The position numbers were made by a program, and so were the translations under genes. The notes beneath the pieces are model-generated. The model worked only from the letters and a program-made list of their open reading frames with translations, searched no databases and was not told the DNA's origin. Shown piece by piece: positions 15,884 to 64,000 of a stretch of 64,000 bases of DNA; position 1 is the stretch's first letter; the number at the start of each line of letters is the position of its first letter. The DNA is taken from contig MVZM01000001.1 of NCBI GenBank assembly GCA_002068415.1, positions 140,597 to 204,596 of the forward strand, read 5' to 3'. This DNA comes from Tenericutes bacterium ADurb.BinA124. GTDB taxonomy: Bacteria; Bacillota_I; Bacilli_A; ML615J-28; CAG-698.

Positions 15884-15885
15884 TG

Positions 15886-16664: not shown

Positions 16665-16691
16665 AATTAAAGAAATTAAGGAGTAGTATTC

Positions 16692-19534
<2,843 letters not shown>

Positions 19535-20580: not shown

Positions 20581-21386
20581 AAGGTGACTTTCACATCCAT
20601 ACCACTTACTCCGATGGGGCTTTAAGCGTTGAAGAAGTTCTAACACAGGGGAAAAAACTTGATTTTATCAGTATTACCGATCATGATTTTCTCCAAGGCT
20701 CCTTTGATGCGGTCGCACTGGGATGGGAAAAACCGCGGGTCATTGTCGGCTTCGAACTCTCCACCGAATTCTTAAATGAAAGCATTCATCTTTTAGCTTA
20801 TTTTCCCACCATCGTTGGTCTTGAAGAATTGAATCTTCATTTACAAGACCAACGAAAACATCGTCTTCAACGCGCTTTTTTAATCAAAGACCGTTTGCAA
20901 GAACACTTTCAAATCAATTTAAATATGGATTTTACCAAACAAATCGATAGCATCACCCGTGGAACAATTGCGGACCAGATAATTAAACAAGGCTACCCTT
21001 ATTCTCGGGAAGAGATATTCAAACGGATGATTGGTAGAAATTGTCCCGCCTATCTTCCCAGCACGAAACTTTCTCCTTCCCAAGGTATTGCCTTAATTCA
21101 TCATTATGGAGGACGAGCGGTTTTGGCTCATCCCACTCATTTAAAAACAGTGTCGGTGGAAACGATTATAGCCATGGGCCTTGATGGTTTGGAAGCCATC
21201 TATTCACAGAATAAACCGGATGAAGAAAGTAAGTTTCGCCAATTAGCCTTAGACAATCAGTTGTTTATTACGGCGGGAAGTGATTTCCATCGTTTTAATG
21301 ATGAAAAACATGGCGATATTGGTTGCGTTACTTTAGAAAATGACGATTTAGCAATTTTTTTAAATAAATTAGGTATAAGAATATGA
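20577..21386 (+). CDS. PHP-domain phosphoesterase (TrpH/YciV, RNase AM-like family)
   Basis: N-terminal FHIHTTYSDG metal-binding motif, later His/Asp ligands (AHP, DFH), about 270 aa. Confidence 0.7.
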   Translation: MKGDFHIHTTYSDGALSVEEVLTQGKKLDFISITDHDFLQGSFDAVALGWEKPRVIVGFELSTEFLNESIHLLAYFPTIVGLEELNLHLQDQRKHRLQRAFLIKDRLQEHFQINLNMDFTKQIDSITRGTIADQIIKQGYPYSREEIFKRMIGRNCPAYLPSTKLSPSQGIALIHHYGGRAVLAHPTHLKTVSVETIIAMGLDGLEAIYSQNKPDEESKFRQLALDNQLFITAGSDFHRFNDEKHGDIGCVTLENDDLAIFLNKLGIRI

Positions 21387-22651
21387 TGAATCCCCGAAAA
21401 TTAGCTTTGGAAGCGATTGAAAAAATAATCGCCAAAAAAGCTTATTCCAATTTAGTGGTTAATGACTATTTGAACCGCTTTGAATTTAGTCCCGAAGATA
21501 AAAGTTTATTTGCGAAATTAGTATATGGTACTTTGGAACGCATGTTGACCCTTGATTTTTATTTGGAGCCATATTTCGGTAAAAAAGCCCCTAAACCCTG
21601 GGTGAAGTATTTATTGGAAATGTCCGCTTATCAGCTTATTTTCCTGCGCATTCCCGATTATGCTGTTGTCAATGAAGCCGTGGATATCGCTAACTTGAAA
21701 GACCGTCACATCGGTTCTTTTGTGAATGCCGTGTTACGCAATTTGCAAAGGAATCCGCTTCGGACTTTTGATTATTTGGAAGCCGAAGAACTTTTGGCAG
21801 TTAAATATTCTTTTCCTTTATGGCTTGTGACTTATCTATTGAAAGATTATTCTTTAGAAGTTGTGGAAAAGATATTAGAAGCTTATTTTAATGATAGAAA
21901 TGAAGGCATACGGATTAACAGCTTGAAAATAAGCAAGGATGACTTATTATTTAAACTTGCTGAAAACAATTTAGCATTTCAACTAGCCCCCATTGGGGAA
22001 AACGCTTTAGTGATGAAAGGCGATATTCAAAAGCATCCTTTGTTTACTTCGGGCTTCATTACCATTCAAGATTTGTCATCGCAACGGGTTGCGGAAATCA
22101 TCAATCCCCAAGAAGAAGATGTTGTCTTGGATGTTTGTGCTGCCCCCGGAGGTAAAAGTGCTCACTTGGCGGCATTAATGAACAATACAGGGCAGATTTT
22201 TGCTTGTGATATCCATGCTCACAAAATTAAATTAATGGAAAAGACCTTTAAACGTTTGGGTGTCATCAATGTAAAAACTCAGCAAATTGATGCTTTGTTA
22301 TTATCGGAAGTGGTCAAAGCGGAAACTTTTGACCATGTTTTAGCGGATGTTCCTTGTTCCGGCTTAGGGGTATTATCACATAAGGTTGACATTAAATATC
22401 ATTTGTCTTTAAACAGTATCCAAGAAATAAAAAAGCTGCAAGCTGCCATTTTAGAAAAAACCTGGGGGATTGTGAAAAAGGGTGGTTTTTATACTTATTC
22501 CACTTGTACAATCAATAAAGAGGAGAACGAGGAACAAATTAGGACCTTTTTAAGTAATCACCCTGAGTTTAAGATTGTTCATGAAGAAACAATTTTACCA
22601 CACGAATATCAATGTGACGGTTTCTATATATGTAAAATGAGGAGAGGTTAA
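21383..22651 (+). CDS. rsmB: 16S rRNA (cytosine967-C5)-methyltransferase RsmB/Sun
   Basis: NusB-like N-terminus, SAM-binding DVCAAPGGKS, catalytic Cys motifs (DVPCSG, TCT). Confidence 0.85.
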   Translation: MMNPRKLALEAIEKIIAKKAYSNLVVNDYLNRFEFSPEDKSLFAKLVYGTLERMLTLDFYLEPYFGKKAPKPWVKYLLEMSAYQLIFLRIPDYAVVNEAVDIANLKDRHIGSFVNAVLRNLQRNPLRTFDYLEAEELLAVKYSFPLWLVTYLLKDYSLEVVEKILEAYFNDRNEGIRINSLKISKDDLLFKLAENNLAFQLAPIGENALVMKGDIQKHPLFTSGFITIQDLSSQRVAEIINPQEEDVVLDVCAAPGGKSAHLAALMNNTGQIFACDIHAHKIKLMEKTFKRLGVINVKTQQIDALLLSEVVKAETFDHVLADVPCSGLGVLSHKVDIKYHLSLNSIQEIKKLQAAILEKTWGIVKKGGFYTYSTCTINKEENEEQIRTFLSNHPEFKIVHEETILPHEYQCDGFYICKMRRG

Positions 22652-22652
22652 T

Positions 22653-23693
22653 TTGCAAACTTCAATCTATAATTATGCCAAAGACCAATTAGAACAATAT
22701 TTTCTAAGTATTGATAGCCCTAAATTTCGGGCTACTCAGGTTTTTGAAGCCGTTTATAAACAAAGGCTGACGGATTTTACTAAGATGAGCAATTTTAAAA
22801 AAGAATTTGTTGGCAAATTACAGGATGATTTTTATTTTTCCCAATTGAAAGTTGTGAAAGTCCAAAGCTCTGAAGATGGAACAAAGAAAATTCTATATCA
22901 GCTTGATGATGGCAATTTAATTGAAACGGTTTTAATGAAAAATAATTATGGCTACAGTGTGTGTGTGACCACCCAAGTTGGCTGCAACATGGGTTGTGCT
23001 TTTTGCGCCAGCGGTTTAACTAAACGAGTGCGTAATTTAGAAACAGCGGAAATGGTGTTGCAAGTTTTAACGATTGACAATTGCTTGCGTGAGCAAAATG
23101 AACGTGTTAGCCATGTGGTGATTATGGGCATCGGCGAACCCTTTGATAACTATGATAATGTGCTTAGTTTTATTAAAATCATTAATGATGGAAAGGGTTT
23201 AGAAATTGGTAGTCGCCATATTACCTTATCAACTTGCGGTATTATTCCGAAAATCTATCAATTTAGCGAATTCCCGTTGCAAGTTAATTTAGCAGTGTCT
23301 TTGCATTTTGCTACCGATGAAAAACGCAGCCAGTATATGAAGATTAATCGTAGTTATAATTTAACGGAATTAAAAAAGGCCTTGCAATACTACTTTGCCA
23401 AGACCAAACGGCGGATTACTTTTGAATATATTTTACTTGATGGGATTAATGATAGTTTAGAAGATGCCAAATTACTGCTTGATTATGTGAGGGATATGAA
23501 TGCTTATATTAATTTAATCCCTTATAATGAAACCGGGAAGCAGTTTAAACGGTCAAAAGATGGTCGCTCCCGTTCCTTTTTTGATTTTTTAATGAAAAAT
23601 AAACTCCAAGTGACCTTAAGAAGAGAACAGGGCCATGATATTGATGCGGCTTGTGGTCAATTACGTGTAAAGGAACTCTTATGCAAGGATTAG
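22653..23693 (+). CDS. rlmN: 23S rRNA / tRNA m2A methyltransferase RlmN (radical SAM)
   Basis: CNMGCAFCASG radical-SAM cluster motif. TTG start 6 nt after AGGAGAGG. Confidence 0.9.
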   Translation: MQTSIYNYAKDQLEQYFLSIDSPKFRATQVFEAVYKQRLTDFTKMSNFKKEFVGKLQDDFYFSQLKVVKVQSSEDGTKKILYQLDDGNLIETVLMKNNYGYSVCVTTQVGCNMGCAFCASGLTKRVRNLETAEMVLQVLTIDNCLREQNERVSHVVIMGIGEPFDNYDNVLSFIKIINDGKGLEIGSRHITLSTCGIIPKIYQFSEFPLQVNLAVSLHFATDEKRSQYMKINRSYNLTELKKALQYYFAKTKRRITFEYILLDGINDSLEDAKLLLDYVRDMNAYINLIPYNETGKQFKRSKDGRSRSFFDFLMKNKLQVTLRREQGHDIDAACGQLRVKELLCKD

Positions 23694-24541
23694 TCATCAA
23701 ATCACTAAGTGGTGATTTCACCGTTTTTTCTAACCATCAAAATTATATTTGTAAACCTAAGGGTTTATTTAAATATCAAGAAAAACTAGTGAAAGTTGGC
23801 GATAAAGTTGTTTTTGATCCTGAAACTTTGATAATCGATGAAGTTCTCCCTCGCAAAAACGATTTAATTCGGCCGGCAATCGCTAATATTGATAAAATCT
23901 TTTGCGTTTTTTCCGTTAAAGAACCGGAATTAAATCTTAATTTGTTGGATCGCCTGCTATCAATCTTCACTTATCATAATCTTCATTGTCTTATTATCTT
24001 CACCAAATTAGATTTATTAACTGATTATCAAGATATTGATGTGCTTATTCAGTATTATCAAAAGATTGGTTATGCGGTTTATACTTCCGCCAGTGCATTG
24101 GACTTAGAGGCTATCAAAAAGGAAATTAGTCAATCCATTTGTGCCTTTGCCGGCCAAAGCGGGGTAGGCAAAAGCACCTTGCTCAACCTTTTTGATGAAA
24201 GCTTGAATATTAAAACGGATGTTATTTCTAAAGCTCTAGGTCGAGGGAAGCATACCACTCGACATGTGGAGTTACTACCCTTGTTTGACGGTTGGGTGGC
24301 GGACACCCCCGGGTTTGGGACGGTGGATTTTTCCTTTGATGATTTATTGAGTTTTTCGCATTCGTTTGTGGAGTTTTTTCATCATTCCTCGTCTTGTAAA
24401 TACCCCAAATGTTTGCATTTAGAAGAACCGGATTGCTTTATTAAAACGATGGTTCAGAAGCATGAGATTTTACCAAGTCGTTATGAAAACTATGTTCTTT
24501 TTTCTCAAGAAATAAAACAAACGCTTAAAAACAAATATTAG
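23681..24541 (+). CDS. rsgA: Ribosome small-subunit-dependent GTPase A
   Basis: OB domain, circularly permuted GTPase (GQSGVGKSTLLN), C-terminal Zn-finger Cys. Confidence 0.85.
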   Translation: MQGLVIKSLSGDFTVFSNHQNYICKPKGLFKYQEKLVKVGDKVVFDPETLIIDEVLPRKNDLIRPAIANIDKIFCVFSVKEPELNLNLLDRLLSIFTYHNLHCLIIFTKLDLLTDYQDIDVLIQYYQKIGYAVYTSASALDLEAIKKEISQSICAFAGQSGVGKSTLLNLFDESLNIKTDVISKALGRGKHTTRHVELLPLFDGWVADTPGFGTVDFSFDDLLSFSHSFVEFFHHSSSCKYPKCLHLEEPDCFIKTMVQKHEILPSRYENYVLFSQEIKQTLKNKY

Positions 24542-24549
24542 GAGGCTTT

Positions 24550-25194
24550 ATGATTGTCGCACCTTCCATTTTGTCGGCTGATTTTTCCCGCTTATATGAA
24601 GAAACCAAAGATTTGTATGCATATGGTGCTGAATGGTTACACATTGATGTAATGGATGGCCATTTTGTTCCGAATATTACGATTGGGCCAGTGGTTGTTC
24701 AAAGCTTAAAAAAACATCTCAAAATGGTTTTTGATGTCCATTTAATGATTAGTGATCCGCGCTTTTTTGCGAAAGCCTTCGTTGATGCGGGTGCGGATAT
24801 CATTACTTTCCATTATGAAGCCACTAATGATGTGTTGGGGATGCTTTCTTACCTGAAATCATTGGGTGTTAAGGTCGGTTTATCCATTAAACCGCATACT
24901 CCGGTTGTTGTTTTGGAGCCCTTTTTAAAAGAACTTGATGTCGTTTTAGTGATGTCCGTGGAGCCCGGCTTTGGTGGTCAAAGCTTTATGCCCCTAGCTC
25001 TAGATAAAATTAAATATCTTGCGAAACAAAAACAAGAAAACCATTACCCTTATCTCATTGAAGTTGATGGCGGGATTAATGAGCAAACAGGGCAGCTATG
25101 TGCCCAAGCTCAAGCTGAAGTATTAGTGGCGGGAACGGCGATTTTTAAAGCTTCAAACCGCCAAGAAGTTATTGGCAGGTTAAAACAATTATGA
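24550..25194 (+). CDS. rpe: Ribulose-phosphate 3-epimerase
   Basis: APSILSADF…HIDVMDGHFVPN and a conserved TIM-barrel layout. Confidence 0.9.
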   Translation: MIVAPSILSADFSRLYEETKDLYAYGAEWLHIDVMDGHFVPNITIGPVVVQSLKKHLKMVFDVHLMISDPRFFAKAFVDAGADIITFHYEATNDVLGMLSYLKSLGVKVGLSIKPHTPVVVLEPFLKELDVVLVMSVEPGFGGQSFMPLALDKIKYLAKQKQENHYPYLIEVDGGINEQTGQLCAQAQAEVLVAGTAIFKASNRQEVIGRLKQL

Positions 25195-25796
25195 TTATTA
25201 AAATTGTGGTGGCGGGTGAAAACCAATTCACGCGTTTATATCAGCCCGATGCTGATGAGATGTTAGTTGGCGTTGATGGCGGAATCAATTACATCATCCA
25301 AATGGGCTTGACAGCCGATTTAGGAATCGGTGATTTTGATTCATGCAATATTGAAGAAGTCGTTATGGCTTGTTCCAAAGTCAAAGTTTTCCCCAAGGAA
25401 AAAGAAAAAAGCGATTTGGAACTCGCTATTTTAGAGGTGAAAGACCTTCATCATGAGAAAATTGTTATTTATAACGGTACGGGCGGGAGGCTGGATCATT
25501 TCATCGCCATTCTCAATGTCTTAATCAAATATTCCGAAGCGAATATTGAGGTGGTCGATGAACATAATTTAATGCGGATTATTAGCCAACCGACTAAACT
25601 GGTGAAGCGTGATTATAAATATTTTTCTTTGTTTGCCTTAGAAGAAGGAACGATTATTTCTTTACAAGGTTTTAAATATCCCTTAACTAATTATCATTTA
25701 GCCATTCATGATAATTTATGTTTAAGCAACGAACTGGTTGAAGATGGTTTTTTGGAAGTTAATAACAAAAAAATATTAGTCATTGAAAGCAAGTAA
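25191..25796 (+). CDS. Thiamine pyrophosphokinase
   Basis: GVDGG…GDFDS motif; same position as B. subtilis yloS/thiN after rpe. Confidence 0.75.
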   Translation: MIIKIVVAGENQFTRLYQPDADEMLVGVDGGINYIIQMGLTADLGIGDFDSCNIEEVVMACSKVKVFPKEKEKSDLELAILEVKDLHHEKIVIYNGTGGRLDHFIAILNVLIKYSEANIEVVDEHNLMRIISQPTKLVKRDYKYFSLFALEEGTIISLQGFKYPLTNYHLAIHDNLCLSNELVEDGFLEVNNKKILVIESK

Positions 25797-25802
25797 AACC
25801 AT

Positions 25803-25830
25803 AAAAAAAAGGCTTTAACAGCCCTTTTCG
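25803..25830. terminator. Bidirectional terminator between the thiamine pyrophosphokinase gene and rpmB
   Basis: A-run, ggct-ttaac-agcc hairpin, then a T-run. Confidence 0.4.
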
Positions 25831-25836
25831 GAATCA

Positions 25837-26028
25837 TTAAGCGCGTTGCACTAAACCTGACTTCAATGCTTTTGCGGAAACATAAACGCGTTTCACTTTA
25901 CCATCAGTATCAACGATTCTGACTTTTTGTAAATTTGCTTTCCAACTACGGCGGGTAGCAACAAGTGAGTGGGGACGATTATTTCCTGTAACTGTGCCTA
26001 AGCCGGTTATATAACATTTACGTGGCAT
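25837..26028 (-). CDS. rpmB: 50S ribosomal protein L28
   Basis: MPRKCYITG…[11 protein letters not shown] canonical L28 sequence. Confidence 0.9.
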
Positions 26029-44743: not shown

Positions 44744-45693
44744 TCACTCGCGATAGTTTTTAATAATTGTTGGCAAAATCCCTCGATTGTAAATTTCATT
44801 TATAGATTCAATGCATTCCAAATATGTTAATTTTTGATGAACTAATGTCGTTGTTACTGATTCATAATCTTCTTTATATGGGTTCGTGTTTACGATTTCA
44901 TGTAAAATTGATTGCGGATTTTCACCTGGATTACAAGAGAGGTTTTGTTTCCCGTGAATCTGTCGATCTTTTATGACATCATCGATAATGTTTTCAATTA
45001 ATTTTTCATCTATTAATTTACTAGTCCACATTTTATGTAAATCATAGATGTGTCTTGAATGTCTAAAATATTTTTTTTGTAGATGGTAATCACAAATTGC
45101 AAACAACTTATCAATTAAAGTTCTTTCGATTGTTTGAACTAACATTTTAAATGGTTCAAGATGATATTGTTTAATTAAATTCATTTGGTTGTTTTTATTT
45201 AGATACTTAGTAATGTAATTACTTACTTCCATTTCTTTGACTGGATAAGGTTTATAAACTACAATTGTTTCAACAATTATAAATGGTACTGTATTTTGTT
45301 CTTTTTCAAAGTGATTACTGAAGCCAATACGGTACTCATTATGATCTTTTCTTGAGAGAACATCATTATGATTAAGTAATTCCATTTTTAATGTCTCAAT
45401 AATTTGCAATATATCTGCTTTTAGTTGTTTTCTTTGCCCTTGCGTTACTTGTTTATTATTAAATCTTATTGCTAAATCAATATCCTCTGAAAACTATCAA
45501 TTACATCATAACATTTTGATAATGATGTTCCTCCTTTAAACACAACTTGGATATTTGATTTAAGTTTGGTTAACTCTTTCAAAAACAAAGACACAAAATA
45601 ATCTTTTTCAACTTGAAATTCACTTAATCCGTATTCCTCTGCTACCGTTTTGATAATTGTTTCAAATATTTCCTTATGATTGTGTAATTGCAT
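44744..45693 (-). pseudogene. abiEii: AbiEii/AbiGii-family nucleotidyltransferase toxin (type IV TA / abortive infection), disrupted by a -1 frameshift in an A4 run at 45490-45493
   Basis: N-terminus has FKGGTSLSKCY; restoring one A gives …DSFSEDIDLAIRFNNKQ…QGQRKQLKADILQIIETLK…, continuous with ORF 44744-45409. Confidence 0.65.
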
Positions 45694-46348
45694 TTAATCC
45701 ACCTATCTTATAAAACTTTACTTGTGCTTCTAGCGGATATGCTGATAATATCTCTTCCACTTCTTGTTCTTTTAAATCAATGGTACTTAAAAACGATAAT
45801 ATTTGCGTTGATGATTTCTTTAAATCATACTCACTATACTTCTCAAAGTTATTTAATAAATCTAGTACTTGGAGTAGTTTATAGTTTTTATTATTCACCA
45901 TTACTCTTGGAGCATTTACGATTACTCGATTGTTTTTGATTTTTATTTCTCTTTTTTTATTTGAAACTTGATTTGAATAGATTGTTGAAACAACAGCTAT
46001 TTGTGATGTAAGTCCAAGTTGGTTTGCAAAGTTAATTCCACTTTCGTAACCAATTCTTATACCAGAATCATTAAATATATACTTCTTTTGAATCACATCA
46101 CTCACATAGACTGTTGTCTTTCCGAAAATGCTACTTTTATTTGGTAAGCCATAAACACCTTTGTCAAGTTTTTCAAGTTGTCCTGATTCAGTAAATCTTT
46201 TAAAAATTGATCTTATCGTCCCCTTGCTAATATTAGGAAATTCTTGATAAATATCTTTAACAAAAATAGGAGTTTGTTTATCATAATTATTCATAATATA
46301 GTTTAGGATGTTATCCTTCGTTTTTAATGCTTTCATTATTTTTATCAC
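45674..46348 (-). CDS. abiEi: AbiEi-family antitoxin / transcriptional regulator
   Basis: N-terminal winged-HTH-like region (…ISKGTIRSIFKRFTESGQLEKLDKGVYGLP…). Directly upstream of abiEii with a 20-nt overlap. Confidence 0.6.
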   Translation of the reverse strand: MIKIMKALKTKDNILNYIMNNYDKQTPIFVKDIYQEFPNISKGTIRSIFKRFTESGQLEKLDKGVYGLPNKSSIFGKTTVYVSDVIQKKYIFNDSGIRIGYESGINFANQLGLTSQIAVVSTIYSNQVSNKKREIKIKNNRVIVNAPRVMVNNKNYKLLQVLDLLNNFEKYSEYDLKKSSTQILSFLSTIDLKEQEVEEILSAYPLEAQVKFYKIGGLNAITQS

Positions 46349-54362: not shown

Positions 54363-55505
54363 ATGAAATATTTATTTACTTCAGAATCTGTTACTGAAGG
54401 CCATCCCGATAAGGTTTGTGACCAAATTGCTGATGCCATTTTAGATGCGATTTTAAAAGATGATGCTCATGCGAAAGTGGCTTGTGAAGCTGTTGCAACA
54501 ACGGGTTTAGTCCTTGTTATGGGGGAAATCACCACCACAACTTATGTCGATATTCAAAAGATTGTGCGGGAAACCGTGGCTGCCATCGGTTATGATCGTG
54601 GGAAGATTGGCTTTGATGCGGAAAATTTAGCTGTTTTAGTATGTGTTAACGAACAATCTCCCGATATTGCCAATGCTGTTCGGGATGGCGAAGGAGCGGG
54701 TGATCAAGGCTTAATGTTCGGTTTTGCCTGCAACGAAACAGAAGAACTAATGCCCTTACCGATTAGTTTAGCTCATAAATTAGCCAAACGCTTGGCCGAT
54801 GTGCGCAAGGCCGGTCTTGTTGATTTTCTAAGACCGGATGGAAAATCACAAGTGACGGTTGAATATGATGATAATCGTGCCGTTCGGGTTGACAGTGTGG
54901 TTATTTCCACCCAACATAATGAGCAAGTTAAACTAGAAACTTTGCAGTCCTTTATTTTAGAACAAGTCATTAAACCGGTCATTCCCGCATCTTTACTTGA
55001 TGAAAAGACCAAGTATTATATTAATCCGTCGGGGCGCTTTGTGATTGGGGGACCGAAAGGTGATTCCGGCTTAACCGGTCGCAAAATCATTGTTGATACT
55101 TATGGGGGTTATGCTCACCATGGTGGTGGAGCTTTTAGTGGCAAAGATGCCACCAAAGTTGATCGCAGTGCTTCCTATATGGCTCGATATATTGCGAAGA
55201 ACTTGGTTGCTGCCAAAGTGGCCACTAAATTGGAAGTCGGCTTAAGTTATGTTATCGGCATGAGTGAACCAACCTCTGTTTTAGTCAATACTTTTGGCAC
55301 CAGCTCATTTAGTGATGAAGAAATTGTTAGAGGCATCCGTCAGTTGTTTGCTTTAACACCGCAAGCCATTATCACAACCTTGGGTTTAAGAAGACCAATT
55401 TATCAACAGCTTGCTGCTTATGGTCATTTTGGGCGTTCTGATTTAGATTTGCCTTGGGAAAAACTGGACCGCGTTAATGATGTGAAAAAACATTTTAATT
55501 TATAA
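54363..55505 (+). CDS. metK: S-adenosylmethionine synthetase
   Basis: [17 protein letters not shown] and GGGAFSGKD signatures; ribosome-binding site AAGGAGAG. Confidence 0.95.
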
Positions 55506-55510
55506 ATTTG

Positions 55511-55543
55511 AAAAAAACCGCTTCTTTAAAGGCGGTTTTTTGA
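55511..55543 (+). terminator. Rho-independent terminator after metK
   Basis: aaccgc-ttctttaaag-gcggtt stem followed by a T-run. Confidence 0.6.
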
Positions 55544-55629
55544 TTAAAAAACAAATATTTCGTAAAAAATGAGGGTTTAATCTAGAATTATAGTTGATGA
55601 TGTGCTATAATAAAATGTAAACGTTTTTC

Positions 55630-56520
55630 ATACTGACAAAAATAAAAGTGGAGGAAAGTAATTTAAGCCCGTCAGTATGCAAGGGTTTAAGTTATTAGAA
55701 ATGTATGCGTAAATTTTCAAAATTAGTCGTTCTATGCTTGACCTTGGTGATGGCTCTTTTCTTAGCATCTTGTAAAGAGACAATTGAACTAAGCTTTGAA
55801 AACGAAACGATGACGATGATTGTTGGTGATACGAAAACATTAGTTCCGGTGGCCAACAAAGAAGGTTTAACTTATGAATGGACGTCGGATAAAACCGCAG
55901 TTGTTACGGTTGATGCCGGGCTTGTTACCGCTGTTAGTGCGGGGACGGCTAAAGTAACTGTCAAGGTTAAAGACAAAGATGTCAGTGCGACCATTACCAT
56001 TACGGTTAATCCTGTCGTCATTAGTTTTACGGAAAAAACGATGACCATTGCCATCGATCAAAGCGTGACTTTAACGCCAACGGTTGTGCCAGCCCAAACG
56101 ATGACTTATACCTGGACAACTAGCGATGCAAGTGTGGCGACGGTTACTAACGGTGTTGTTAAGGGAATAAAAGTCGGAACAGCGACGGTTACAGCATCGG
56201 GGAAGGGTGGAAGTGCTTCCATTACAATTAATGTTGTTTTACCTAATCCGACCCAAGTAACGATTACTGGGGCATCGGCAAGTGCTAAAGTTGGCGCTAC
56301 TATGCAACTTGGAGCAACAATCTTACCAGCGAAAGCTTCCCAAGCTGTTACTTGGAAATCAAGTGATACCAAGCTGGCAACGGTTTCCGCAAGCGGTTTA
56401 GTGACTTTCGTCGGTGTTGGTAAAGTGACCATTACGGCAACATCGGTCGCTTTGGATAGCCAAAAGGCAAGTGTGACCATTGATGTTGGGGCTCCTGATC
56501 CGACTAAAGTAGCGATTACC
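55630..56520 (+). repeat. 891-bp segment identical to 61687-62577 (copy 1: leader plus 5' end of lipoprotein gene 1)
   Basis: Identity checked at both ends and through identical embedded ORF translations. Divergence starts abruptly at 56521/62578. Confidence 0.85.
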
Positions 56521-59500
56521 GGGGCTTCTACAACCGCTAAAGTTGGCGATAAAATGCAACTTAGCGCTACGGTATTACCGGCTACAGCTTTACAAACTGT
56601 TGCTTGGAAATCAAGTGATACCACATTGGCAACTGTTACACCAGCCGGTTTAGTGACTTTCCTTGGCATGGGAAGTGTTACCATTACCGCGACATCTACC
56701 GTTTTGAATACTCTTAAAGCAACAGTGACCATTGAGGTTGGCGCTCCCGATCCAGCAAGCATTGCTGTTACCGGCACTGATGGCAAGGATCGAGTTATTA
56801 TTGGTGAAACCTTGCAAATGCTTGCGGTTGTTTCTCCGGAACTAGCTAATCAAGGTGTAAGATGGTCAACCTCGGATGAAACCATTGCGACGATTGATGA
56901 AAATGGTTTATTAAATGCTTTGAAAGTCGGAGAAATTACTGTTATTGCGACTTCAACAGTTTTAGAAACAGTGTCTGGTCAAGTGACCATTAATGTGGTT
57001 CTTCCTGAACCGGTCGGTATTGAGGTAAAGGGTGATGAATCTGTTCTTCAAGTTGCGGAAACGGTTCAGTTAACTACGGTTATTCAACCATTACATGCTT
57101 CACAAGAAGTCATTTATTCTTCGAGTGATGAAGCAATCGCCACGGTTTCCGAAAGTGGTTTAGTTACCGGTGTTAGTGCTGGTACGGCGGCGATTATTGT
57201 TAAGAGTAAGGCTTTAGAAACCGTATTAATGACTTACACAGTTAAAATTGTTGCCAAGATTGAAAATCCTGATTATTCTCATATTTTAGTTGATGCTAAT
57301 TTGGAAGCTGAACGTTATTCAACGCTTACTTTTGATGGTGTTGATTACATTGTTGGTATCAATGCTTTCAAATCATTAGCACAAGGCTTTGGAAAAATCG
57401 TTGAAGGTTCAACGGTTATGATTCTTGCTGGAACTTATGAAGAAGCCGCTGCTGTTAACTTTAACAATGTCACGATTCTTGGTCCTAATGCCCTTATTAA
57501 TCCGGTAACTGATTTAGAATCGCGTTTGCCGGAAGCAATTCTTACTAAGAAATTGACATTAGGTGCTGTTCAAAATATCGTTATCAAAGGGATTGAATTG
57601 ACCGCTCAAGGGCAAATTTACTCTGCGAAAAACTTGAAAAACATCACAGTTGAAAATGTCTATACGGTTTATTCTTCCGTTGAGGCCGCTCAAGGGGTCA
57701 TTTATTTCGGTATTTCCGATGATAGCTTGAAAAATGAAGACTTATTATTTAAGAACAATTCCTTGAATGATACGAGAAAACAAGGTTATCGGGGAATTCG
57801 TGTTAATAATGCCTATAATATCACGATTGAAGGCAACTATTTTTATGGTTTCTTTGATACTATTCGTTTAGAAGGAACGGGTAATAGCGGCTGGACGCAA
57901 CCCGGAACTGGTTGTGGGGCTGCGGGAGTTGTTTTAATCCAAAACAATACTTTCCGGATGAATATCCAATATCCAATTCTTCTTGGCCGTTACAGTGCAA
58001 CAAAAGTTGACATTTTAAATAATGATATCGGTGTTGACCCGGATCATAGCGGTGTTTATGGCTTAACGAACATTATTAACTTTGCTCCGGAAGCCGGTGC
58101 TCCAAAAACCGTTGTTAACATTAAATACAATAATTTCTTACACAACACTGCTTGGCATGATGTTCGTTTCAAAACGGGAACGGCTACGGCTGACCAACTA
58201 GAAATCAATGTTAACTTCAACAAATTTAATGAAGGAGTTTGCATTGATCCGACTGATGGACCATGTAATTATATTGACAATGGTGGGACAAGTGCTTCCA
58301 AAAACAACATCATTAACGGTCAATTTAACTATTTCGCCGTTAAACCGATTGAAGATGAATTCCGTGGTTTGAATGACAAGGGCTTTGCTCCTTATTATCT
58401 TACTTTGGAAGAATACAACGATGCTTTAACAGCATACTTCGTTGATCCAAGCTTGGTTGGTAAAGCTGGCGGTGATGCTGTAGTTGTCCAAGGTCTTAAC
58501 TTAGTCTTTGGCGAACGTGCTTTCGCAACCCTAGCTTCCGCTTTAGAAGCGGTACCGGCAAAAGCGACGATTATCGTTTTACCGGGTACTTATTCGGAAA
58601 AGATTACGATTGACAAAGGTGTGACCTTAAAGACTTTGAATGCCAATGTTAATCCAACAGAAGATGCGACCGCTTTCTTGGCTGCTTCGCCAACGGCTAC
58701 TATTTCCAATGAAGTATGGTATATCAAAGATGATGCCAATACAAGTGTTAATGACCTCACGATTAAGGGCTTTACTTTTACGGGTGGTGCGCGAATCAGT
58801 GAATATGGCGCTTCCGGCAATCAATATCGTTTCTTGTATGAAAACAATTATGCTTTTGACACAACGGCTCCGACCCTTGCTTGGAAACAGGACGCTTATT
58901 CTTCATATGGTGTGGGAACCGAAGCTGATACCGCTAAAGTTCCTGGTTTCATTAGCTTAGCTCCTAATGGTTTGTGGATGTATAATGTCGTTTTCCGCAA
59001 CAATAAATTCGTTAATGTAAAAGACACGAATATTTACTTAATGTGCTTACAAGGCGTAACGATTGAAGGTAATGAATTCTCGGGTGGTGACCGTGATGCG
59101 ATTCGTTTAGAATACGGCTCACAAGGTGGAATCTTCAACATTAAGAATAATACCTTTGAAAATATGAACTACAATGGTATTTATATTAGATCTTATAGTG
59201 GTAGCATTTATGCTCCGGATTTTGTTGCTAATATTTATTATAATACTTTCAAGAATGTCGGCTTGGCCGGGGCAACGGAAACACCAACACATACGAGAAT
59301 TGGCGCGATAGCAACAAGAGGCTATGGCGAAAAAATGAACGCTACTTTCAACATTCGCTATAATGCTTTTGAGAACTGCACCAATTATATTAGTTTACGT
59401 GCCAATGTCTCTAATGTTGAGAAATGGAATGCGGGAACGAAAAAGTGGATGGCTACGATTGAGTACAACTCCTTCATCGATGCTGATGGCGTTACCAAAT

Positions 59501-61578
59501 ATTTCCAAAACTTACTTAATGCTGGCGATACTGCTGCAACTAATGTCGATGATGTTTATATTAATTATAACTTCTACGGCACCGATGCGAATACGAAAGC
59601 CATAACCACGCTTGAACAATTTGATCATCATAAAGTGGCGGCCAGCAACTTAGTTGTTTACAATACCCTGGCAGAATTAGAAGCCGGAAGAGCTACTTCC
59701 CTCATTCCTGCTTCCGTTGTTGTCACGGGAAAAGCTGAGCTGAAAGGTGGCGAAGTGGCCAACTTTAGTGCGACAGTTCTTCCGAATACCGCTCCGCAAG
59801 ATGTTGTATGGAGTACATCTAATGCTAGTATTGCGATTGTTGATGAAAATGGCAAAGTAACGGGATTGAAACCGGGAACTGCAAAAATTAAAGCAACAGC
59901 TAAAGATTTAGATACTGTTTTTGGGGAATTTGATGTTACGGTTGAAGGTGTGCTGACTGCTAGTTTCTTAGTTGATGCTGAAACAGCAACGATGGAAGAA
60001 CTTGCGAAAGTAACTTATGGCGGCAAAGATTATTATGTCGGCGTGAACGCTTTTGATACTTTAGCAAAAGCGATGGCCGTTGCTGATACTGGTACAACTA
60101 TCTATGTCAATAAAGGGACTTACTTAGACACTGATGCGATTACCATTAATAAAGACAATCTTTCACTTTTAGGACCGAATGCTAATATTGATGGTGTTAT
60201 CGGTGCTCGCGGTGATGAAGCAATTATCAACAGCAAGATTACCCTTGCTAGCGGCGTTAAAAATGTCGTTATCAATGGTTTCTATTTCAATCACAAGCCG
60301 GGTACTTGCGTTGTTACCGGTGAAGCTGCGGGCTTAATTGATGGCTTTAAGTTCATTAATAATATTGTTGATGGCTATGGCGGTGATGGTAGCAGTGGCT
60401 TCATTGTCTTCAAACAAGCAAGTGCTGAAGCTAAAATAATGAACTTCACCATTAGCCATAACAAATTCTTCAGTTTCGGCTCAGATCGGATAGTCCGGAT
60501 GGCTTATGTAGAAAACCTAATCTTCACCAACAACTTACTCCTTGATGCTTCGACGGATGGGCTTCGTTTACACGATAATGCCGGCGGCATTATGGGCACA
60601 TTGCAGATTGTTGGTAACACCTTTAACAATGTTGGTCAATTCGCTGTCTTTATTGGTACATCAGCTTGTACGAGCATCGTTATTACCGATAACAATTTTG
60701 TCAGCAACGGTCATGTATATGATGGTGCTGCACTTTCCCTTCGCAAAACCGGCGTTGATGCCGCTGGAACAACAATTTTAATCGCTAATAACTTCTTTGA
60801 TCGCAGTTCCGATTATGATATTCGGATTGATCATAGTGCTGTTGAAGCTGATAATCTAGTAATTACCGTTTCCGGAAATGTCTTCAAGACCGCTCCTAAG
60901 CGCTTCTATTATTATAACAATATTTCCGATCCAGTTCCGGCAGTTAAGACAAACTTTACGGGCAATATCATTTATGCGGCTGACGGTGTTACCGTAGCTG
61001 ATCCGGCGACGGTCGCTGATAAGATTAAAAATGCGACGGTTGCTGATGCTAACCCAGCTTTAGACTTATTCTTTAGTGAATATGGCGAAGGCTCAAGCAA
61101 TAACAAGTGGTTGGAAATCTATAACCCAACTAATGCCGCTATTGATTTAAGTGGCTACAAAGTAGAACTATATACCAATGGTAATACTAATGTTCAAAAC
61201 AGCTTAACCTTCCAAGCCGGAACCATGCTGGCAGCCGGCGATGTCCTCTTAATTGTCAATGATAAAATCGAGGCTTCCCAAAAATTACCGGGAGCTATCG
61301 AAAGCAATGTTACTTACTTCAATGGTAACGATGCCCTTGTCTTGAAAAAAGGCGATGTCGTAATTGATATTATCGGTTTAGTGGGCAATGATCCAGGAAC
61401 TAACTGGGCGGTTGGTGTCGGTGCAACTTCGGAATACACCCTAGTTCGTAAATCTTCTTATGCTGGACTTCCGTTAACCGTCTTTGCTCCGGAACAATGG
61501 GATGTTTACCCGCAAAATTATTTCGGGAATATGGATAGCCATGCCTATTTACCGGCTTATGTAGCTCCGGCTTCATAA
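55705..61578 (+). CDS. Giant surface lipoprotein (1957 aa): lipobox, about 8 Big_2 Ig-like domains, beta-helix I, Big_2, beta-helix II, C-terminal lamin-tail domain
   Basis: - Signal peptide …LFLASC.
- Repeated about 85-aa …TVKVGDTxxL…VxWxSSD…ATVxxxGxVTAVxxGTAxITA units.
- PbH1-type repeats (NNTFRMN, YNNFLHN, YNTFKN, RYNAFEN).
- C-terminal …LFFSEYGEGSSNNKWLEIYNPT…GYKVELY… lamin-tail fold (about 61051-61575). Confidence 0.7.
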   Translation: MRKFSKLVVLCLTLVMALFLASCKETIELSFENETMTMIVGDTKTLVPVANKEGLTYEWTSDKTAVVTVDAGLVTAVSAGTAKVTVKVKDKDVSATITITVNPVVISFTEKTMTIAIDQSVTLTPTVVPAQTMTYTWTTSDASVATVTNGVVKGIKVGTATVTASGKGGSASITINVVLPNPTQVTITGASASAKVGATMQLGATILPAKASQAVTWKSSDTKLATVSASGLVTFVGVGKVTITATSVALDSQKASVTIDVGAPDPTKVAITGASTTAKVGDKMQLSATVLPATALQTVAWKSSDTTLATVTPAGLVTFLGMGSVTITATSTVLNTLKATVTIEVGAPDPASIAVTGTDGKDRVIIGETLQMLAVVSPELANQGVRWSTSDETIATIDENGLLNALKVGEITVIATSTVLETVSGQVTINVVLPEPVGIEVKGDESVLQVAETVQLTTVIQPLHASQEVIYSSSDEAIATVSESGLVTGVSAGTAAIIVKSKALETVLMTYTVKIVAKIENPDYSHILVDANLEAERYSTLTFDGVDYIVGINAFKSLAQGFGKIVEGSTVMILAGTYEEAAAVNFNNVTILGPNALINPVTDLESRLPEAILTKKLTLGAVQNIVIKGIELTAQGQIYSAKNLKNITVENVYTVYSSVEAAQGVIYFGISDDSLKNEDLLFKNNSLNDTRKQGYRGIRVNNAYNITIEGNYFYGFFDTIRLEGTGNSGWTQPGTGCGAAGVVLIQNNTFRMNIQYPILLGRYSATKVDILNNDIGVDPDHSGVYGLTNIINFAPEAGAPKTVVNIKYNNFLHNTAWHDVRFKTGTATADQLEINVNFNKFNEGVCIDPTDGPCNYIDNGGTSASKNNIINGQFNYFAVKPIEDEFRGLNDKGFAPYYLTLEEYNDALTAYFVDPSLVGKAGGDAVVVQGLNLVFGERAFATLASALEAVPAKATIIVLPGTYSEKITIDKGVTLKTLNANVNPTEDATAFLAASPTATISNEVWYIKDDANTSVNDLTIKGFTFTGGARISEYGASGNQYRFLYENNYAFDTTAPTLAWKQDAYSSYGVGTEADTAKVPGFISLAPNGLWMYNVVFRNNKFVNVKDTNIYLMCLQGVTIEGNEFSGGDRDAIRLEYGSQGGIFNIKNNTFENMNYNGIYIRSYSGSIYAPDFVANIYYNTFKNVGLAGATETPTHTRIGAIATRGYGEKMNATFNIRYNAFENCTNYISLRANVSNVEKWNAGTKKWMATIEYNSFIDADGVTKYFQNLLNAGDTAATNVDDVYINYNFYGTDANTKAITTLEQFDHHKVAASNLVVYNTLAELEAGRATSLIPASVVVTGKAELKGGEVANFSATVLPNTAPQDVVWSTSNASIAIVDENGKVTGLKPGTAKIKATAKDLDTVFGEFDVTVEGVLTASFLVDAETATMEELAKVTYGGKDYYVGVNAFDTLAKAMAVADTGTTIYVNKGTYLDTDAITINKDNLSLLGPNANIDGVIGARGDEAIINSKITLASGVKNVVINGFYFNHKPGTCVVTGEAAGLIDGFKFINNIVDGYGGDGSSGFIVFKQASAEAKIMNFTISHNKFFSFGSDRIVRMAYVENLIFTNNLLLDASTDGLRLHDNAGGIMGTLQIVGNTFNNVGQFAVFIGTSACTSIVITDNNFVSNGHVYDGAALSLRKTGVDAAGTTILIANNFFDRSSDYDIRIDHSAVEADNLVITVSGNVFKTAPKRFYYYNNISDPVPAVKTNFTGNIIYAADGVTVADPATVADKIKNATVADANPALDLFFSEYGEGSSNNKWLEIYNPTNAAIDLSGYKVELYTNGNTNVQNSLTFQAGTMLAAGDVLLIVNDKIEASQKLPGAIESNVTYFNGNDALVLKKGDVVIDIIGLVGNDPGTNWAVGVGATSEYTLVRKSSYAGLPLTVFAPEQWDVYPQNYFGNMDSHAYLPAYVAPAS
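56253..56768 (+). repeat. Internal tandem duplication of a 258-nt Big_2-domain unit (2 copies, about 80% nt identity)
   Basis: Units 56253-56510 and 56511-56768 encode near-identical 86-aa Ig-like domains. Confidence 0.5.
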
Positions 61579-61592
61579 TCATGCTCAAGACT

Positions 61593-61627
61593 AGTCCTAA
61601 AAGGTAAGCCTTTTGGGACTTTTTTTA
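61593..61627 (+). terminator. Rho-independent terminator after lipoprotein gene 1
   Basis: agtcctaaaagg-taag-ccttttgggact followed by T7. Confidence 0.6.
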
Positions 61628-61686
61628 TTGAAAGAAAATAAGTAGTTATCTAAGATTTAATATGTTATAATTGATACGGAAAAATA

Positions 61687-62577
61687 ATACTGACAAAAAT
61701 AAAAGTGGAGGAAAGTAATTTAAGCCCGTCAGTATGCAAGGGTTTAAGTTATTAGAAATGTATGCGTAAATTTTCAAAATTAGTCGTTCTATGCTTGACC
61801 TTGGTGATGGCTCTTTTCTTAGCATCTTGTAAAGAGACAATTGAACTAAGCTTTGAAAACGAAACGATGACGATGATTGTTGGTGATACGAAAACATTAG
61901 TTCCGGTGGCCAACAAAGAAGGTTTAACTTATGAATGGACGTCGGATAAAACCGCAGTTGTTACGGTTGATGCCGGGCTTGTTACCGCTGTTAGTGCGGG
62001 GACGGCTAAAGTAACTGTCAAGGTTAAAGACAAAGATGTCAGTGCGACCATTACCATTACGGTTAATCCTGTCGTCATTAGTTTTACGGAAAAAACGATG
62101 ACCATTGCCATCGATCAAAGCGTGACTTTAACGCCAACGGTTGTGCCAGCCCAAACGATGACTTATACCTGGACAACTAGCGATGCAAGTGTGGCGACGG
62201 TTACTAACGGTGTTGTTAAGGGAATAAAAGTCGGAACAGCGACGGTTACAGCATCGGGGAAGGGTGGAAGTGCTTCCATTACAATTAATGTTGTTTTACC
62301 TAATCCGACCCAAGTAACGATTACTGGGGCATCGGCAAGTGCTAAAGTTGGCGCTACTATGCAACTTGGAGCAACAATCTTACCAGCGAAAGCTTCCCAA
62401 GCTGTTACTTGGAAATCAAGTGATACCAAGCTGGCAACGGTTTCCGCAAGCGGTTTAGTGACTTTCGTCGGTGTTGGTAAAGTGACCATTACGGCAACAT
62501 CGGTCGCTTTGGATAGCCAAAAGGCAAGTGTGACCATTGATGTTGGGGCTCCTGATCCGACTAAAGTAGCGATTACT
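61687..62577 (+). repeat. 891-bp segment identical to 55630-56520 (copy 2)
   Basis: Same as copy 1; its own extended -10 (tgttataat, 61663-61671) lies just upstream. Confidence 0.85.
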
Positions 62578-64000
62578 GGGGCAAATTCCTTTGCTAAGGT
62601 TGGTGAAACGATGGATTTGAAAGCGACGGTTTTACCAAGCAAAGCATCTCAGGAAGTAACTTGGTCCGTCAGCGATGAAGCTTTAGCGACGGTTTCAAAG
62701 ACTGGCTTAGTAACTTTTTTAGGCATCGGTAAAGTAAGCATTACCGCAACTTCGGTCGCTTTGGCTAGCCAAAAAGCGACAGTATCCGTCAATATCATTG
62801 AACCGGATCCGGTGAGTATTACCGTCAGTGGAGCGGATGGAAAAACCGAACTGCAATTGGCCAAGACCTTACAAATGACTGCCGTCGTTAAGCCCGATTT
62901 AGCCGATCAAAGTGTCACTTGGTCAACTTCGGATATGTCGATTGCTTTCATTGATGAGACGGGATTGTTGACAGCTGTCAAAGTGGGAACCGTCGATGTG
63001 ATTGCGACTTCACAGGCTTTAGGAAGCCTTAGTGGCACTATTACCATTAATGTTATTTTGCCACTCCCGGAAGAAATCAATGCTACAATTCCGGAAACGG
63101 TTTTACAAATTGAAGAAACGATGCAATTATCAGCGACGATTACTCCGGCTTTAGCCAATCAACAAGTCACTTACCAAACGAGCAATGAAGCAGTGGCAAC
63201 GGTTTCCACAAGCGGTTTAGTGACTGGTGTTGCGGCCGGAACGGCGACTATCACCATTACCAGTCAAGAATTATCTTCGCTTGTGAAAACATTTGAAGTG
63301 AAAATCATCAATAAATTGCCGGCGCCAAGCTCTAGTGATGTTGTTGTTGATAGTGCTTTAAAAACGGTTGAGCGTTATTCCCAGGTTGTCTATGAAAATG
63401 TCGATTATATTGTCGGCATCAATGCTTTTGCGGATTTTGGGAAAATAGTTACCCAAGAAAAAATGGCTATTTTTGTACAAGCCGGAACCTATACGGAAGA
63501 TTTAATGATTACAAGCAGTAAAGTGACCATTTTAGGACCGAATTCCGATAAGGATCCTAATAAGGATGCAAGAGTTGCCGCTGCGATAATTAGCGGAAAA
63601 ATCACCATCGAGGCTTCACTGGAATACATCATGATTAACGGCTTTGATTTTACCGGTAACGGCGCTGTTTATGGCAATGGGCCGGCTAAAAATATTTCGT
63701 TTATTTACAATAAAGTCTATGATACGGCGGAAAACACTGTTGCTTGGTCAGGCTTGAGAAACTATAATTTAGTTGGTTTCTTCACCTTCTGGAAACAAGG
63801 AAAGGTAATGGAAGACTTTGTTATCACTAACAATGCCTTTTCCAATGTCCCGCAAATCAATATCATGATGGGTAATTTACTTAATTTAACGATTAAAGAT
63901 AATACGTTTAAAGATTTTGCTCAAGACGCCATCCGTCTTGATGGGGGATATAATAGCGGATTACTGTTAGTTGACAATAATTTGTTTGCTAACACGACTT
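61762..64000 (+). CDS. Second giant surface lipoprotein paralogue (3' end beyond window): Big_2 array followed by a beta-helix domain
   Basis: Identical first 272 codons to gene 1, then divergent Big_2 units and PbH1-like repeats. No stop before the window end, which is why it is missing from the ORF track. Confidence 0.7.
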   Translation, partial: MRKFSKLVVLCLTLVMALFLASCKETIELSFENETMTMIVGDTKTLVPVANKEGLTYEWTSDKTAVVTVDAGLVTAVSAGTAKVTVKVKDKDVSATITITVNPVVISFTEKTMTIAIDQSVTLTPTVVPAQTMTYTWTTSDASVATVTNGVVKGIKVGTATVTASGKGGSASITINVVLPNPTQVTITGASASAKVGATMQLGATILPAKASQAVTWKSSDTKLATVSASGLVTFVGVGKVTITATSVALDSQKASVTIDVGAPDPTKVAITGANSFAKVGETMDLKATVLPSKASQEVTWSVSDEALATVSKTGLVTFLGIGKVSITATSVALASQKATVSVNIIEPDPVSITVSGADGKTELQLAKTLQMTAVVKPDLADQSVTWSTSDMSIAFIDETGLLTAVKVGTVDVIATSQALGSLSGTITINVILPLPEEINATIPETVLQIEETMQLSATITPALANQQVTYQTSNEAVATVSTSGLVTGVAAGTATITITSQELSSLVKTFEVKIINKLPAPSSSDVVVDSALKTVERYSQVVYENVDYIVGINAFADFGKIVTQEKMAIFVQAGTYTEDLMITSSKVTILGPNSDKDPNKDARVAAAIISGKITIEASLEYIMINGFDFTGNGAVYGNGPAKNISFIYNKVYDTAENTVAWSGLRNYNLVGFFTFWKQGKVMEDFVITNNAFSNVPQINIMMGNLLNLTIKDNTFKDFAQDAIRLDGGYNSGLLLVDNNLFANTT

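Follow-up and report, generated by a model that had tools for sequence, protein, structure and literature searches.

How did two neighbouring genes come to be identical over their first few hundred coding nucleotides and to have so little in common beyond them? The question is raised by a tandem pair of lipoprotein genes (gene 1 and gene 2; Table 1) in the window, by which we mean the whole 64-kb stretch of DNA that was analysed. Direct alignment gives an exact direct repeat of 890 bp at an offset of 6057, and BLAST found the same repeat. The block consists of 75 nt of leader and 815 nt of coding sequence (271 codons plus 2 nt). The original prediction had put it at 891 bp, with an edge at 56521/62578; the measured ends, 56519 and 62576, lie inside the ±3 nt given there. 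Past this 3' edge, in-register identity is 0.52 to 0.72 per 50 nt up to about position 57250 and at random level beyond.

Table 1. Features of the tandem lipoprotein locus, in window coordinates.
Feature	Position	Strand	Basis or remark
Extended -10 of gene 1, TGCTATAAT	55603..55611	+	Read from sequence; outside block
Structured 5' leader	55629..55704	+	Fold z-score -2.46
Shared block copy 1 (leader, lipobox-bearing signal peptide, Ig-like D1 to D3*)	55630..56519	+	Exact 890-bp match
Gene 1 (A type), lipoprotein of 1957 aa	55705..61578	+	ORF and domain search
Tandem domain duplication, 252 bp (D3* and next domain)	56242..56753	+	Only tandem repeat found
Intrinsic terminator of gene 1, 12-bp stem then T run	61593..61620	+	Strong
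Extended -10 of gene 2, TGTTATAAT	61663..61671	+	Read from sequence; outside block
Shared block copy 2	61687..62576	+	Exact 890-bp match
Gene 2 (B type), runs off window	61762..64000	+	Full length 909 aa

The two genes lie on the same (+) strand, 183 nt apart. The product of gene 1, which is identical to OPZ34042.1/HPX83920.1, begins with six Ig-like domains and continues, in order, with two beta-helix modules, another Big_2 domain, one further beta-helix module, and, at the C-terminus, LTD (domain matches, Big_2 seven times, Beta_helix, and LTD). The product of gene 2 starts with the same three Ig-like domains, which are followed by another three and by a single beta-helix module; it gives six Big_2 matches (E about 1e-66 for the Big_2 matches of the two genes). 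The signal peptide of gene 1 ends in the lipobox MRKFSKLVVLCLTLVMALFLAS followed by C, and L-A-S-C occupies residues 20 to 23 in both products. The description of gene 2 as giant does not hold, as it is 909 aa long in three independent assemblies, and its stop codon would fall about 490 nt beyond the window. In independent assemblies it is followed by degV, a metallophosphatase gene, citXG, and fumarase genes, which refutes the possible array of further paralogues downstream. No third copy of the block occurs in the 64-kb window (BLAST) or in the adjoining 10 kb downstream, and neither leader nor block was found at other Big_2 loci. The products would be cell-surface lipoproteins with a lipid anchor, an Ig-like stalk, and one or more heads. 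The heads have the right-handed beta-helix fold and probably bind or cut a glycan. They are only 12 to 18% identical to pectin-lyase-fold proteins such as the Streptococcus pneumoniae adhesin PfbA, enzymes of families GH110, GH87, GH28, and PL6, and phage tailspike depolymerases.

The history of the pair can be read from five lineages, that of the window and those designated L059, L060, L061, and L064. The gene order metK, A, B, and, further on, degV is kept in L059, L060, and L061, and L064 shows the A and B pair only. The 5' block common to A and B is exact in the window (890 bp) and in L059 (615 bp) and has one mismatch over about 645 bp in L061; its first base, in the leader, is the same in all three. 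No such block occurs in L060 and L064, which form one clade and have paralogues that are 68 to 69% identical at the 5' end. Identity matrices for segment 1 (signal peptide, D1, and D2) show paralogues 100% identical in the window lineage, L059, and L061, compared to 74 to 82% identity between these lineages. In segment 2 (the next three Ig domains) the order is reversed, with paralogues 59 to 62% and orthologues 69 to 78% identical, and the same reversal is seen in segment 3, so that the downstream parts group by type, A or B. This pairing of the downstream parts across lineages bears out the view that the locus is not a young whole-gene duplication. The proposal that gene conversion keeps the N-terminal module alike also stands, given complete paralogue identity in three lineages that differ by 18 to 26% in that very segment. 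Uniformly diverged 5' ends, which the original prediction had set against conversion, are indeed seen in L060 and L064; L059 and L061 have conversion tracts instead. As metK is only about 80% identical between the lineages, the conversions must be later than the lineage split. We consider it highly probable that gene conversion at this locus is recurrent and acts on the 5' module only.

The explanation that best fits these data, and that we think very likely correct, is that A and B, in an uncultured member of the Mycoplasmatota, are tandem paralogues of long standing whose 5' parts have been homogenised by conversion. Ordinary homologous recombination between the direct copies would repeatedly transfer 5' sequence from one gene to its neighbour, non-reciprocally, and A appears to have been the donor in most cases. 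The 5' limit of the tract would be fixed where homology between A and B ends; as the B promoter is unrelated to that of A in this clade, this point is the leader's first base. The 3' limit falls within the conserved inter-domain linker motif P-D/N-P-T-K-V-A-I-T-G, at a point that differs by lineage. The two genes would then differ in promoter but have in common the structured leader, the start of translation, the signal peptide and its lipobox, and the part of the stalk next to the membrane.

The window lineage adds one step to this scheme. D3* is an extra domain found in this lineage only and present in both genes. Its closest match is the next A domain (75%; the two units of the 252-bp duplication are 76% alike), and its residues are of A type. 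We infer that a newly duplicated A domain was carried into B by conversion. Counting against our preferred explanation, good homology to the right of the window's block extends for only about 20 nt; the transfer of D3* therefore either needed short-homology resolution or predates the divergence of the flank.

The assemblies are apparently all metagenomic, and NODE_ and k141 contig names suggest short-read assemblers. The risk of mis-assembly, already raised in the original prediction, is real for the exact identity of the copies, but not for the existence of two of them. Were the tandem arrangement a chimera, with the block in truth belonging to one gene only, contig L053 would be readily understood: it runs from metK through the block directly into the body of gene 2, without the body of gene 1. 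However, the same tandem layout is present in L058 and L054, which are independent of the window assembly, and in other assemblies with both genes on one contig. The two junctions of the block are covered separately by partial contigs, that with the gene 1 body by P0239 and that with the gene 2 body by P0246. The Logan contigs L056 and L057 end 30 nt inside the block, as expected at a k=31 graph branch, and the orthologous pair is found in L059, L060, L061, and L064. A chimeric origin therefore has practically no probability.

The exactness of the repeat is judged differently. Every available assembly shows an exact match, as first claimed; this exactness is not trustworthy, as repeat collapse predicts the same. 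Compared to the window over 18 to 21 kb, independent assemblies differ inside the block only, bar one indel at 44951, giving nine substitution sites in 890 bp, whereas flanking sequence of more than 20 kb yields roughly one SNP plus one indel. At all variable sites of the block, both copies always carry the same allele within an assembly. For T26K and I106V, four assemblies show all four combinations, with both genes alike in each, and at sites 56020 and 56046 (26 nt apart) there are three haplotypes, A-C, G-C, and A-A. Seven of the nine variable sites are synonymous third positions, and variation in the block looks neutral at the sequence level. In the gene bodies, there are no substitutions in gene 1 across L054, L058, and L068 to L071, and one in gene 2 (N705K, in one assembly).

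These patterns could be a product of assembly. An assembler that collapses an 890-bp repeat, pops the SNP bubbles, and writes one consensus twice would generate exact copies from true copies of about 99% identity, with up to about nine differences between them, in which case conversion would be real but less recent. It fits such a process that the window proteins are those of a metagenome bin (ADurb.BinA124), that nearly all differences between the window and other assemblies fall in the block, and that the four T26K/I106V combinations are always the same in both genes; the jump of L053 into the gene 2 body also resembles an assembler skipping a loop. Yet two fixed copies per clone give only two haplotypes per bubble, whereas three occur at 56020/56046, so some of the between-population variation is real. 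In addition, other assemblies show an exact block (L059) or one with a single mismatch (L061). We rate assembly as the source of the exactness at slightly less than an even chance. The excess of sites in the block over its flank, the identical allele in both copies every time, and the three haplotypes at two closely linked sites would equally be expected of a block that is truly hypervariable between otherwise identical strains and homogenised within each, by fast conversion and possibly by import from co-resident relatives. However, repeat collapse predicts the same data, the predominance of synonymous changes gives no sign of selection for diversity, and a donor locus was found neither by BLAST in the window nor in a protein search, though the latter also missed gene 1, which it should have listed. 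We therefore regard true hypervariability as unlikely. In practice, this is a warning that repeats of this kind in metagenome bins assembled from short reads appear as perfect copies and give rise to spurious SNP hotspots.

The locus had been read as fitting gene conversion or cassette exchange with diversifying C-terminal parts, a pattern typical of surface-protein variation systems. Programmed variation, of which mycoplasma vsa/vsp/vlp, pilE/pilS, and vlsE are examples, could work by phase variation, by a diversity-generating retroelement, or by exchange of cassettes. It would suit a relative of wall-less bacteria with large surface lipoproteins that have a conserved 5' end, and also contig L053, which joins the A promoter and block to the gene 2 body. 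However, there are two copies only, both complete genes with their own promoters and a terminator between them, and no silent or promoterless cassettes in the 64 kb or the 10 kb downstream. At the locus, no relevant inverted repeats or simple-sequence tracts were found, the 252-bp domain duplication being the sole tandem repeat, and the scanned neighbours, which are housekeeping genes, include no recombinase or reverse transcriptase. Rather than diversifying or being shuffled, the gene bodies remain stable and orthologous from species to species and, apart from N705K, are identical between assemblies; leader and block were also not found at other Big_2 loci. A diversity-generating retroelement was rejected on the lack of a reverse transcriptase domain in the scanned neighbours and because the differences are mostly third-position transitions; the substitutions between assemblies (A>G, T>C, C>T, T>G, and C>A) are not adenine-specific. 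The lipoprotein families of mycoplasmas (vlp of Mycoplasma hyorhinis, vsp of M. bovis, and vsa of M. pulmonis) belong to a related phylum and, like the present pair, are clustered genes with a highly conserved 5' end for the prolipoprotein signal peptide. They have many members with repetitive C-termini and switch either by means of poly(A) tracts in their promoters or by inversion at vis/vrs sites, the work of a nearby site-specific recombinase; such tracts, inversion sites, recombinase, and numbers are absent here. We consider programmed variation very improbable, and the sequence data do not support antigen shuffling or a new kind of variation system.

Each gene was predicted to keep its own extended -10 promoter just outside the block, and both elements are confirmed. 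Block identity begins 18 nt (gene 1) or 15 nt (gene 2) past the gene's own TGnTATAAT, and the sequences further upstream are unrelated. The element of gene 1 is kept upstream of the A genes in L059, L061, and L064; having no -35 match, it was missed by a consensus promoter scan. An element similar to that of gene 2 lies upstream of the B genes in L059 and L061. Contigs L068 to L071 stop at 61584 to 61590, just upstream of the gene 1 terminator. To judge from the terminator and second promoter between them, genes 1 and 2 are separate transcription units.

The leader that the two genes have in common contains two helices, one pairing 55629-55637 with 55671-55679 and the other 55657-55670 with 55683-55696, and a Shine-Dalgarno sequence (GGAGG, 55650-55654) ahead of the AUG at 55705. 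Among nine distinct leaders, 93.7% of cells pair, versus 26 to 36% in slid controls, and compensatory changes occur at 10 pairs. Rfam gave no match at gathering thresholds in the whole window and only noise for 55500-55800 at E<=10. By this covariation, the leader is a conserved RNA structure. The boldest reading of the locus joins a live conversion hotspot that works at the time-scale of strain turnover, with population-specific block alleles that are the same in both genes, to a leader that is a new pseudoknotted translational control element; we think it quite improbable that both hold. If it were true, both lipoproteins would be under one post-transcriptional switch despite their separate promoters.

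We conclude that the locus is a real but fairly ordinary case of a pattern already known from ligA/ligB of Leptospira interrogans. There, identity runs from -266 to +1890, from the 5' untranslated region (UTR) into the seventh Ig domain, with distinct C-terminal parts, and is ascribed to gene conversion aided by the tandem arrangement; the common 5' UTR is structured and works as an RNA thermometer (PMC7821625). As in lig, the present genes are tandem and encode Big_2-array surface proteins, the block spans from a structured leader to an inter-domain point, and paralogues are closer than orthologues in the 5' region alone. The two cases differ in phylum and have no specific sequence relationship beyond Big_2. 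The block is 890 bp here and about 2.1 kb in lig; the promoters differ and lie outside the block here, whereas the lig promoter is within the identical region, giving transcriptional co-regulation. The distal parts are beta-helix modules and LTD here and further Ig domains in lig. The present host lives in anaerobic digesters and is no known pathogen, and its leader is a candidate control element. A further parallel is offered by the PE/PPE and esx loci of Mycobacterium tuberculosis, where homogenisation of paralogues is described as producing local hotspots of apparent diversity in clonal genomes that are hard for short reads (PMC13061034). The likeness lies in homogenised paralogues with local apparent diversity; the gene families are others, and the present locus consists of one pair with a single fixed tract.

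The pair thus offers a clean case, repeated in several lineages, of paired surface proteins in which concerted evolution is limited to the anchor and stalk. Little is known of this group of Mycoplasmatota, for which the conserved leader RNA provides a small candidate regulatory element. As the clade includes lineages in which conversion has stopped, it should be useful for studying the limits of conversion tracts and the passage of domains between paralogues.

The two tandem Big_2 lipoprotein genes share a 5' direct repeat, seen as an 890-bp exact self-match at an offset of 6057 that comprises the 75-nt leader and the first 815 coding nucleotides. The original prediction described this block correctly within its own stated error, as the match, both genes, and the extended -10 elements were all found again; a terminator separates the genes. 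A BLAST search of the entire window with the block returned two full copies; the other matches are weak (69 to 76%) and fall in neighboring Ig domains, apart from one 32-nt match within gene 2. The sequences that precede the two copies (upstream of position 55630 in the first) are unrelated. Downstream of the block, in-register identity is 0.52 to 0.72 as far as ~57250 and is random beyond.

Features of the lipoprotein locus and its surroundings, in window coordinates
Feature	Position	Description
Block (signal peptide, Ig-like domains D1, D2, and D3*, and leader), copies 1 and 2	55630-56519 and 61687-62576	Identical in the window
Gene 1 (A type)	55705-61578	1957 aa; lipoprotein signal peptide (MRKFSKLVVLCLTLVMALFLAS, then C), 7 Big_2 matches, beta-helix regions, C-terminal lamin-tail domain (LTD)
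Gene 2 (B type)	Starts at 61762, runs off window	909 aa in contig L058
Extended -10 element, gene 1	55603-55611	TGCTATAAT, just 5' of block
Extended -10 element, gene 2	61663-61671	TGTTATAAT, just 5' of block
Terminator between genes	61593-61620	12-bp stem
Leader, both copies	55629-55704 and 61687-61761	Covarying 5' RNA, two helices; also in L059, L060, L061, L064, and L067
Leader helix 1	55629-55637 with 55671-55679	Leader 5' end
Leader helix 2	55657-55670 with 55683-55696	Between GGAGG (55650-55654) and AUG
Variable block sites	55781, 56020, 56046, 56238, 56268, 56319, 56346, 56352, 56370	Nine over all assemblies
AbiEii-like toxin gene and DUF6088 (AbiEi-like) gene	44744-46348 (- strand)	Low-GC island, 29-30% GC (~38% elsewhere)

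The order metK, A, B, ... degV recurs in three related lineages, L059 and L061 (NCBI "Bacilli bacterium" bins) and L060, and an A-B pair is carried on the 8-kb contig L064; L072 (P0123) lacks the 5' end. The exact shared 5' block is 890 bp in the window and 615 bp in L059, and L061 has a shared block of ~645 bp with one mismatch. All three begin at the same first leader base (ATACTGAC...). No exact shared block is present in L060 or L064. When segments were codon aligned, the signal peptide, D1, and D2 were found to be 100% identical between paralogues in one genome (window, L059, and L061) but only 74 to 82% identical between these lineages, among which metK is ~80% identical. For the same segment in L060 and L064, the paralogues are 68 to 69% identical, the A orthologues 93%, and the B orthologues 86%. 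Over the next three Ig domains of the homogenized lineages, paralogues are 59 to 62% identical, compared to 72 to 78% for A-A and 69 to 76% for B-B pairs, and the start of the beta-helix follows this pattern both within genomes and between lineages. We conclude that the A/B duplication is older than the split of all five lineages and that the 5' module was homogenized separately in at least three of the five after that split. The pattern is concerted evolution by gene conversion, limited to the 5' end; the reading of gene conversion first offered for this locus was right, given that paralogues exceed the between-lineage identity in the 5' segment only. Extreme purifying selection as the cause of the identity is ruled out: between species, this segment has diverged to a normal degree (18 to 26% different), and within a genome synonymous sites are identical.

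The 5' limit of the block is the point where A/B homology ends. A and B have unrelated promoter regions in the window, L059, and L061, and the B upstream region has remained A-like in L060 and L064. On its 3' side, the block ends within or beside a conserved linker (...PDPTKVAITG...) that opens an Ig domain, and this end is one domain earlier in L059 and L061 than in the window. The window lineage has an extra Ig domain, D3* (residues 182 to 266), in both genes; together with the following A domain, it forms a 252-bp tandem duplication (76% by TRF and 75% by pairwise alignment). The residues of D3* are A-type, and comparison with the unconverted L060 pair suggests that D1 and D2 of the block are A-like too. 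In the simplest history, the domain duplication would have occurred in A first, and conversion from A to B would then have brought D3* into B. We infer from these sequences that A was probably the donor.

Other public assemblies of the region were reached by exact look-up of the neighboring gltX product, and protein clusters for genes 1 and 2 were obtained by protein search. Two of the cluster members, OPZ34042.1 and OPZ34043.1, come from "Tenericutes bacterium ADurb.BinA124" (unclassified Mycoplasmatota in the NCBI taxonomy; a literature search on the bin name found no paper). The gene 1 member from this bin is identical to the window product, as is P0238. The full layout is present in L058 (ENA ERZ2648158), a 256-kb contig, in the order metK, gene 1 (1957 aa), gene 2 (909 aa), degV, metallophosphatase, citXG, and fumarase. 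No further paralogue follows gene 2, so the array suggested to lie downstream does not exist, and the product of gene 2, taken to be giant, is of ordinary size. The Logan contigs L056 and L057 stop 30 nt inside the block, as expected for a branch in a k=31 graph, and the junctions of the block with gene 1 and with gene 2 are each covered by separate partial contigs; thus, the two block copies are real. In L053 (JGI 3300010365, positions 15647 to 18451), metK and the block lead straight into the body of gene 2 and the 6057-bp unit of gene 1 is missing, reflecting either an assembler that skipped a loop or loss of the unit through crossing-over between the two repeat copies. A scan of genome contigs with the block's protein, in which the source species was not among the representatives reached, yielded no more than distant Big_2 proteins (full-length matches at ≤43%, and one fragment of 70 residues at 53%). 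The gene 2 protein search returned no third paralogue, which is weak evidence, as gene 1 was also unlisted there despite 271 identical residues.

How exact the identity is can be judged from the differences between assemblies. Over 18.3 kb, L058 differs from the window at 16 positions, which are the same 8 sites in both block copies, and nowhere else. Seven substitutions, all in block copy 1, and one indel at 44951 separate L054 from the window over 21.4 kb; L053 differs at one block site over ~18.8 kb, and contigs L068 to L071 differ over ~5.95 kb at 7 block sites and at none in the gene 1 body. Synonymous third positions account for seven of the nine variable sites, and the remaining two produce T26K and I106V. 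All four T/K and I/V combinations occur over four assemblies, with genes 1 and 2 matching within each. Repeat collapse with bubble popping, starting from two copies that are ~1% different, would produce an exact repeat, and it predicts exactly this distribution, the same in both genes of each assembly. However, two sites separated by just 26 nt carry three haplotypes, which points to some real variation between populations. It is safe to consider the block copies at least 99% identical; exact 100% identity does not share this safety.

Every A and B gene, that of the distant relative L067 among them, carries the conserved leader. A 14-bp hairpin separates the leader's Shine-Dalgarno sequence from the AUG, which is ~50 nt away. 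Pairing is preserved in 93.7% of cells, compared to 26 to 36% in slid controls (9 distinct sequences), and there are compensatory changes in 10 pairs; helix 1 is 100% paired with 3 covarying pairs. The loop of helix 2 contains the 3' arm of helix 1, so the helices represent either a pseudoknot or two alternative folds. The leader has no Rfam match, its covariance model matches only at these lipoprotein genes (52 other Big_2 loci yielded none), and a metagenome scan with the leader pattern returned only L063/L064 and two chance matches. Contigs L068 to L071, from four samples, start at 55635 to 55637, ~5 nt inside the block, run straight from the block into gene 1, and end at 61584 to 61590, just 5' of the terminator. 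From these ends, they may be assembled full-length monocistronic gene 1 mRNA.

The proposal that the locus is a surface-protein variation system proved wrong, as there are two complete genes with their own promoters and stable bodies (invariant between assemblies) and no switching elements. No third block copy occurs in the window or within 10 kb downstream. A diversity-generating retroelement (DGR) was rejected given the lack of a reverse transcriptase among the neighbors scanned and block substitutions without adenine specificity; an invertible promoter, given no inverted repeats at the locus and no recombinase among the neighbors, which are housekeeping genes; and slipped-strand switching, given no simple-sequence tracts at the locus.

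Elsewhere in the neighborhood, the AbiEii ORF is shortened in L054 by the 1-nt deletion at 44951. A DEAD-box helicase gene lies between tldD/pmbA and metK in L059 (3093 to 4793), L060 (6866 to 8590), and L061 (1136 to 2836) and is missing from this interval in the window lineage. At Rfam gathering scores, no family was found over window positions 1 to 64000 (no tRNA, rRNA, or riboswitch), including no SAM riboswitch ahead of metK.

The closest known case is the ligA/ligB pair of Leptospira, and the present pair operates alike. The two lig genes, also in tandem, encode Big_2 surface proteins and have identical sequence between -266 and +1890, a stretch that stops inside the 7th Ig domain; the identity has been attributed to gene conversion, and the common 5' untranslated region acts as an RNA thermometer (PMC7821625). 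The present case differs in that neither promoter is part of the tract, beta-helices make up the distal domains, and the genes belong to an environmental Mycoplasmatota bacterium. The feature itself is genuine, and its kind is already known.

The AlphaFold model of the gene 2 product (mean pLDDT, 80.8, with 8 aligned homologues as input) has six Ig-like domains (residues 35 to 516) followed by a beta-helix (~560 to 900). The window B protein lacks the second beta-helix module (~290 aa) of the B orthologues in L059, L060, and L061 (1196 to 1203 aa) and ends at an exact module boundary. Gene 1 encodes three beta-helix modules, based on a recurring N-cap motif, and its LTD is similar to the N terminus of ExeM; sequence searches of PDB and NCBIfam gave almost no informative matches. 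In L067 (positions 16066 to 25952), a single A-type gene is followed by GH30, GH94, GH16, LacI, and CBM4_9 genes. Based on this neighborhood, which hints at a role involving beta-glucan or another glycan for the lipoprotein family, its function at the cell surface is likely glycan binding or glycan cleavage.
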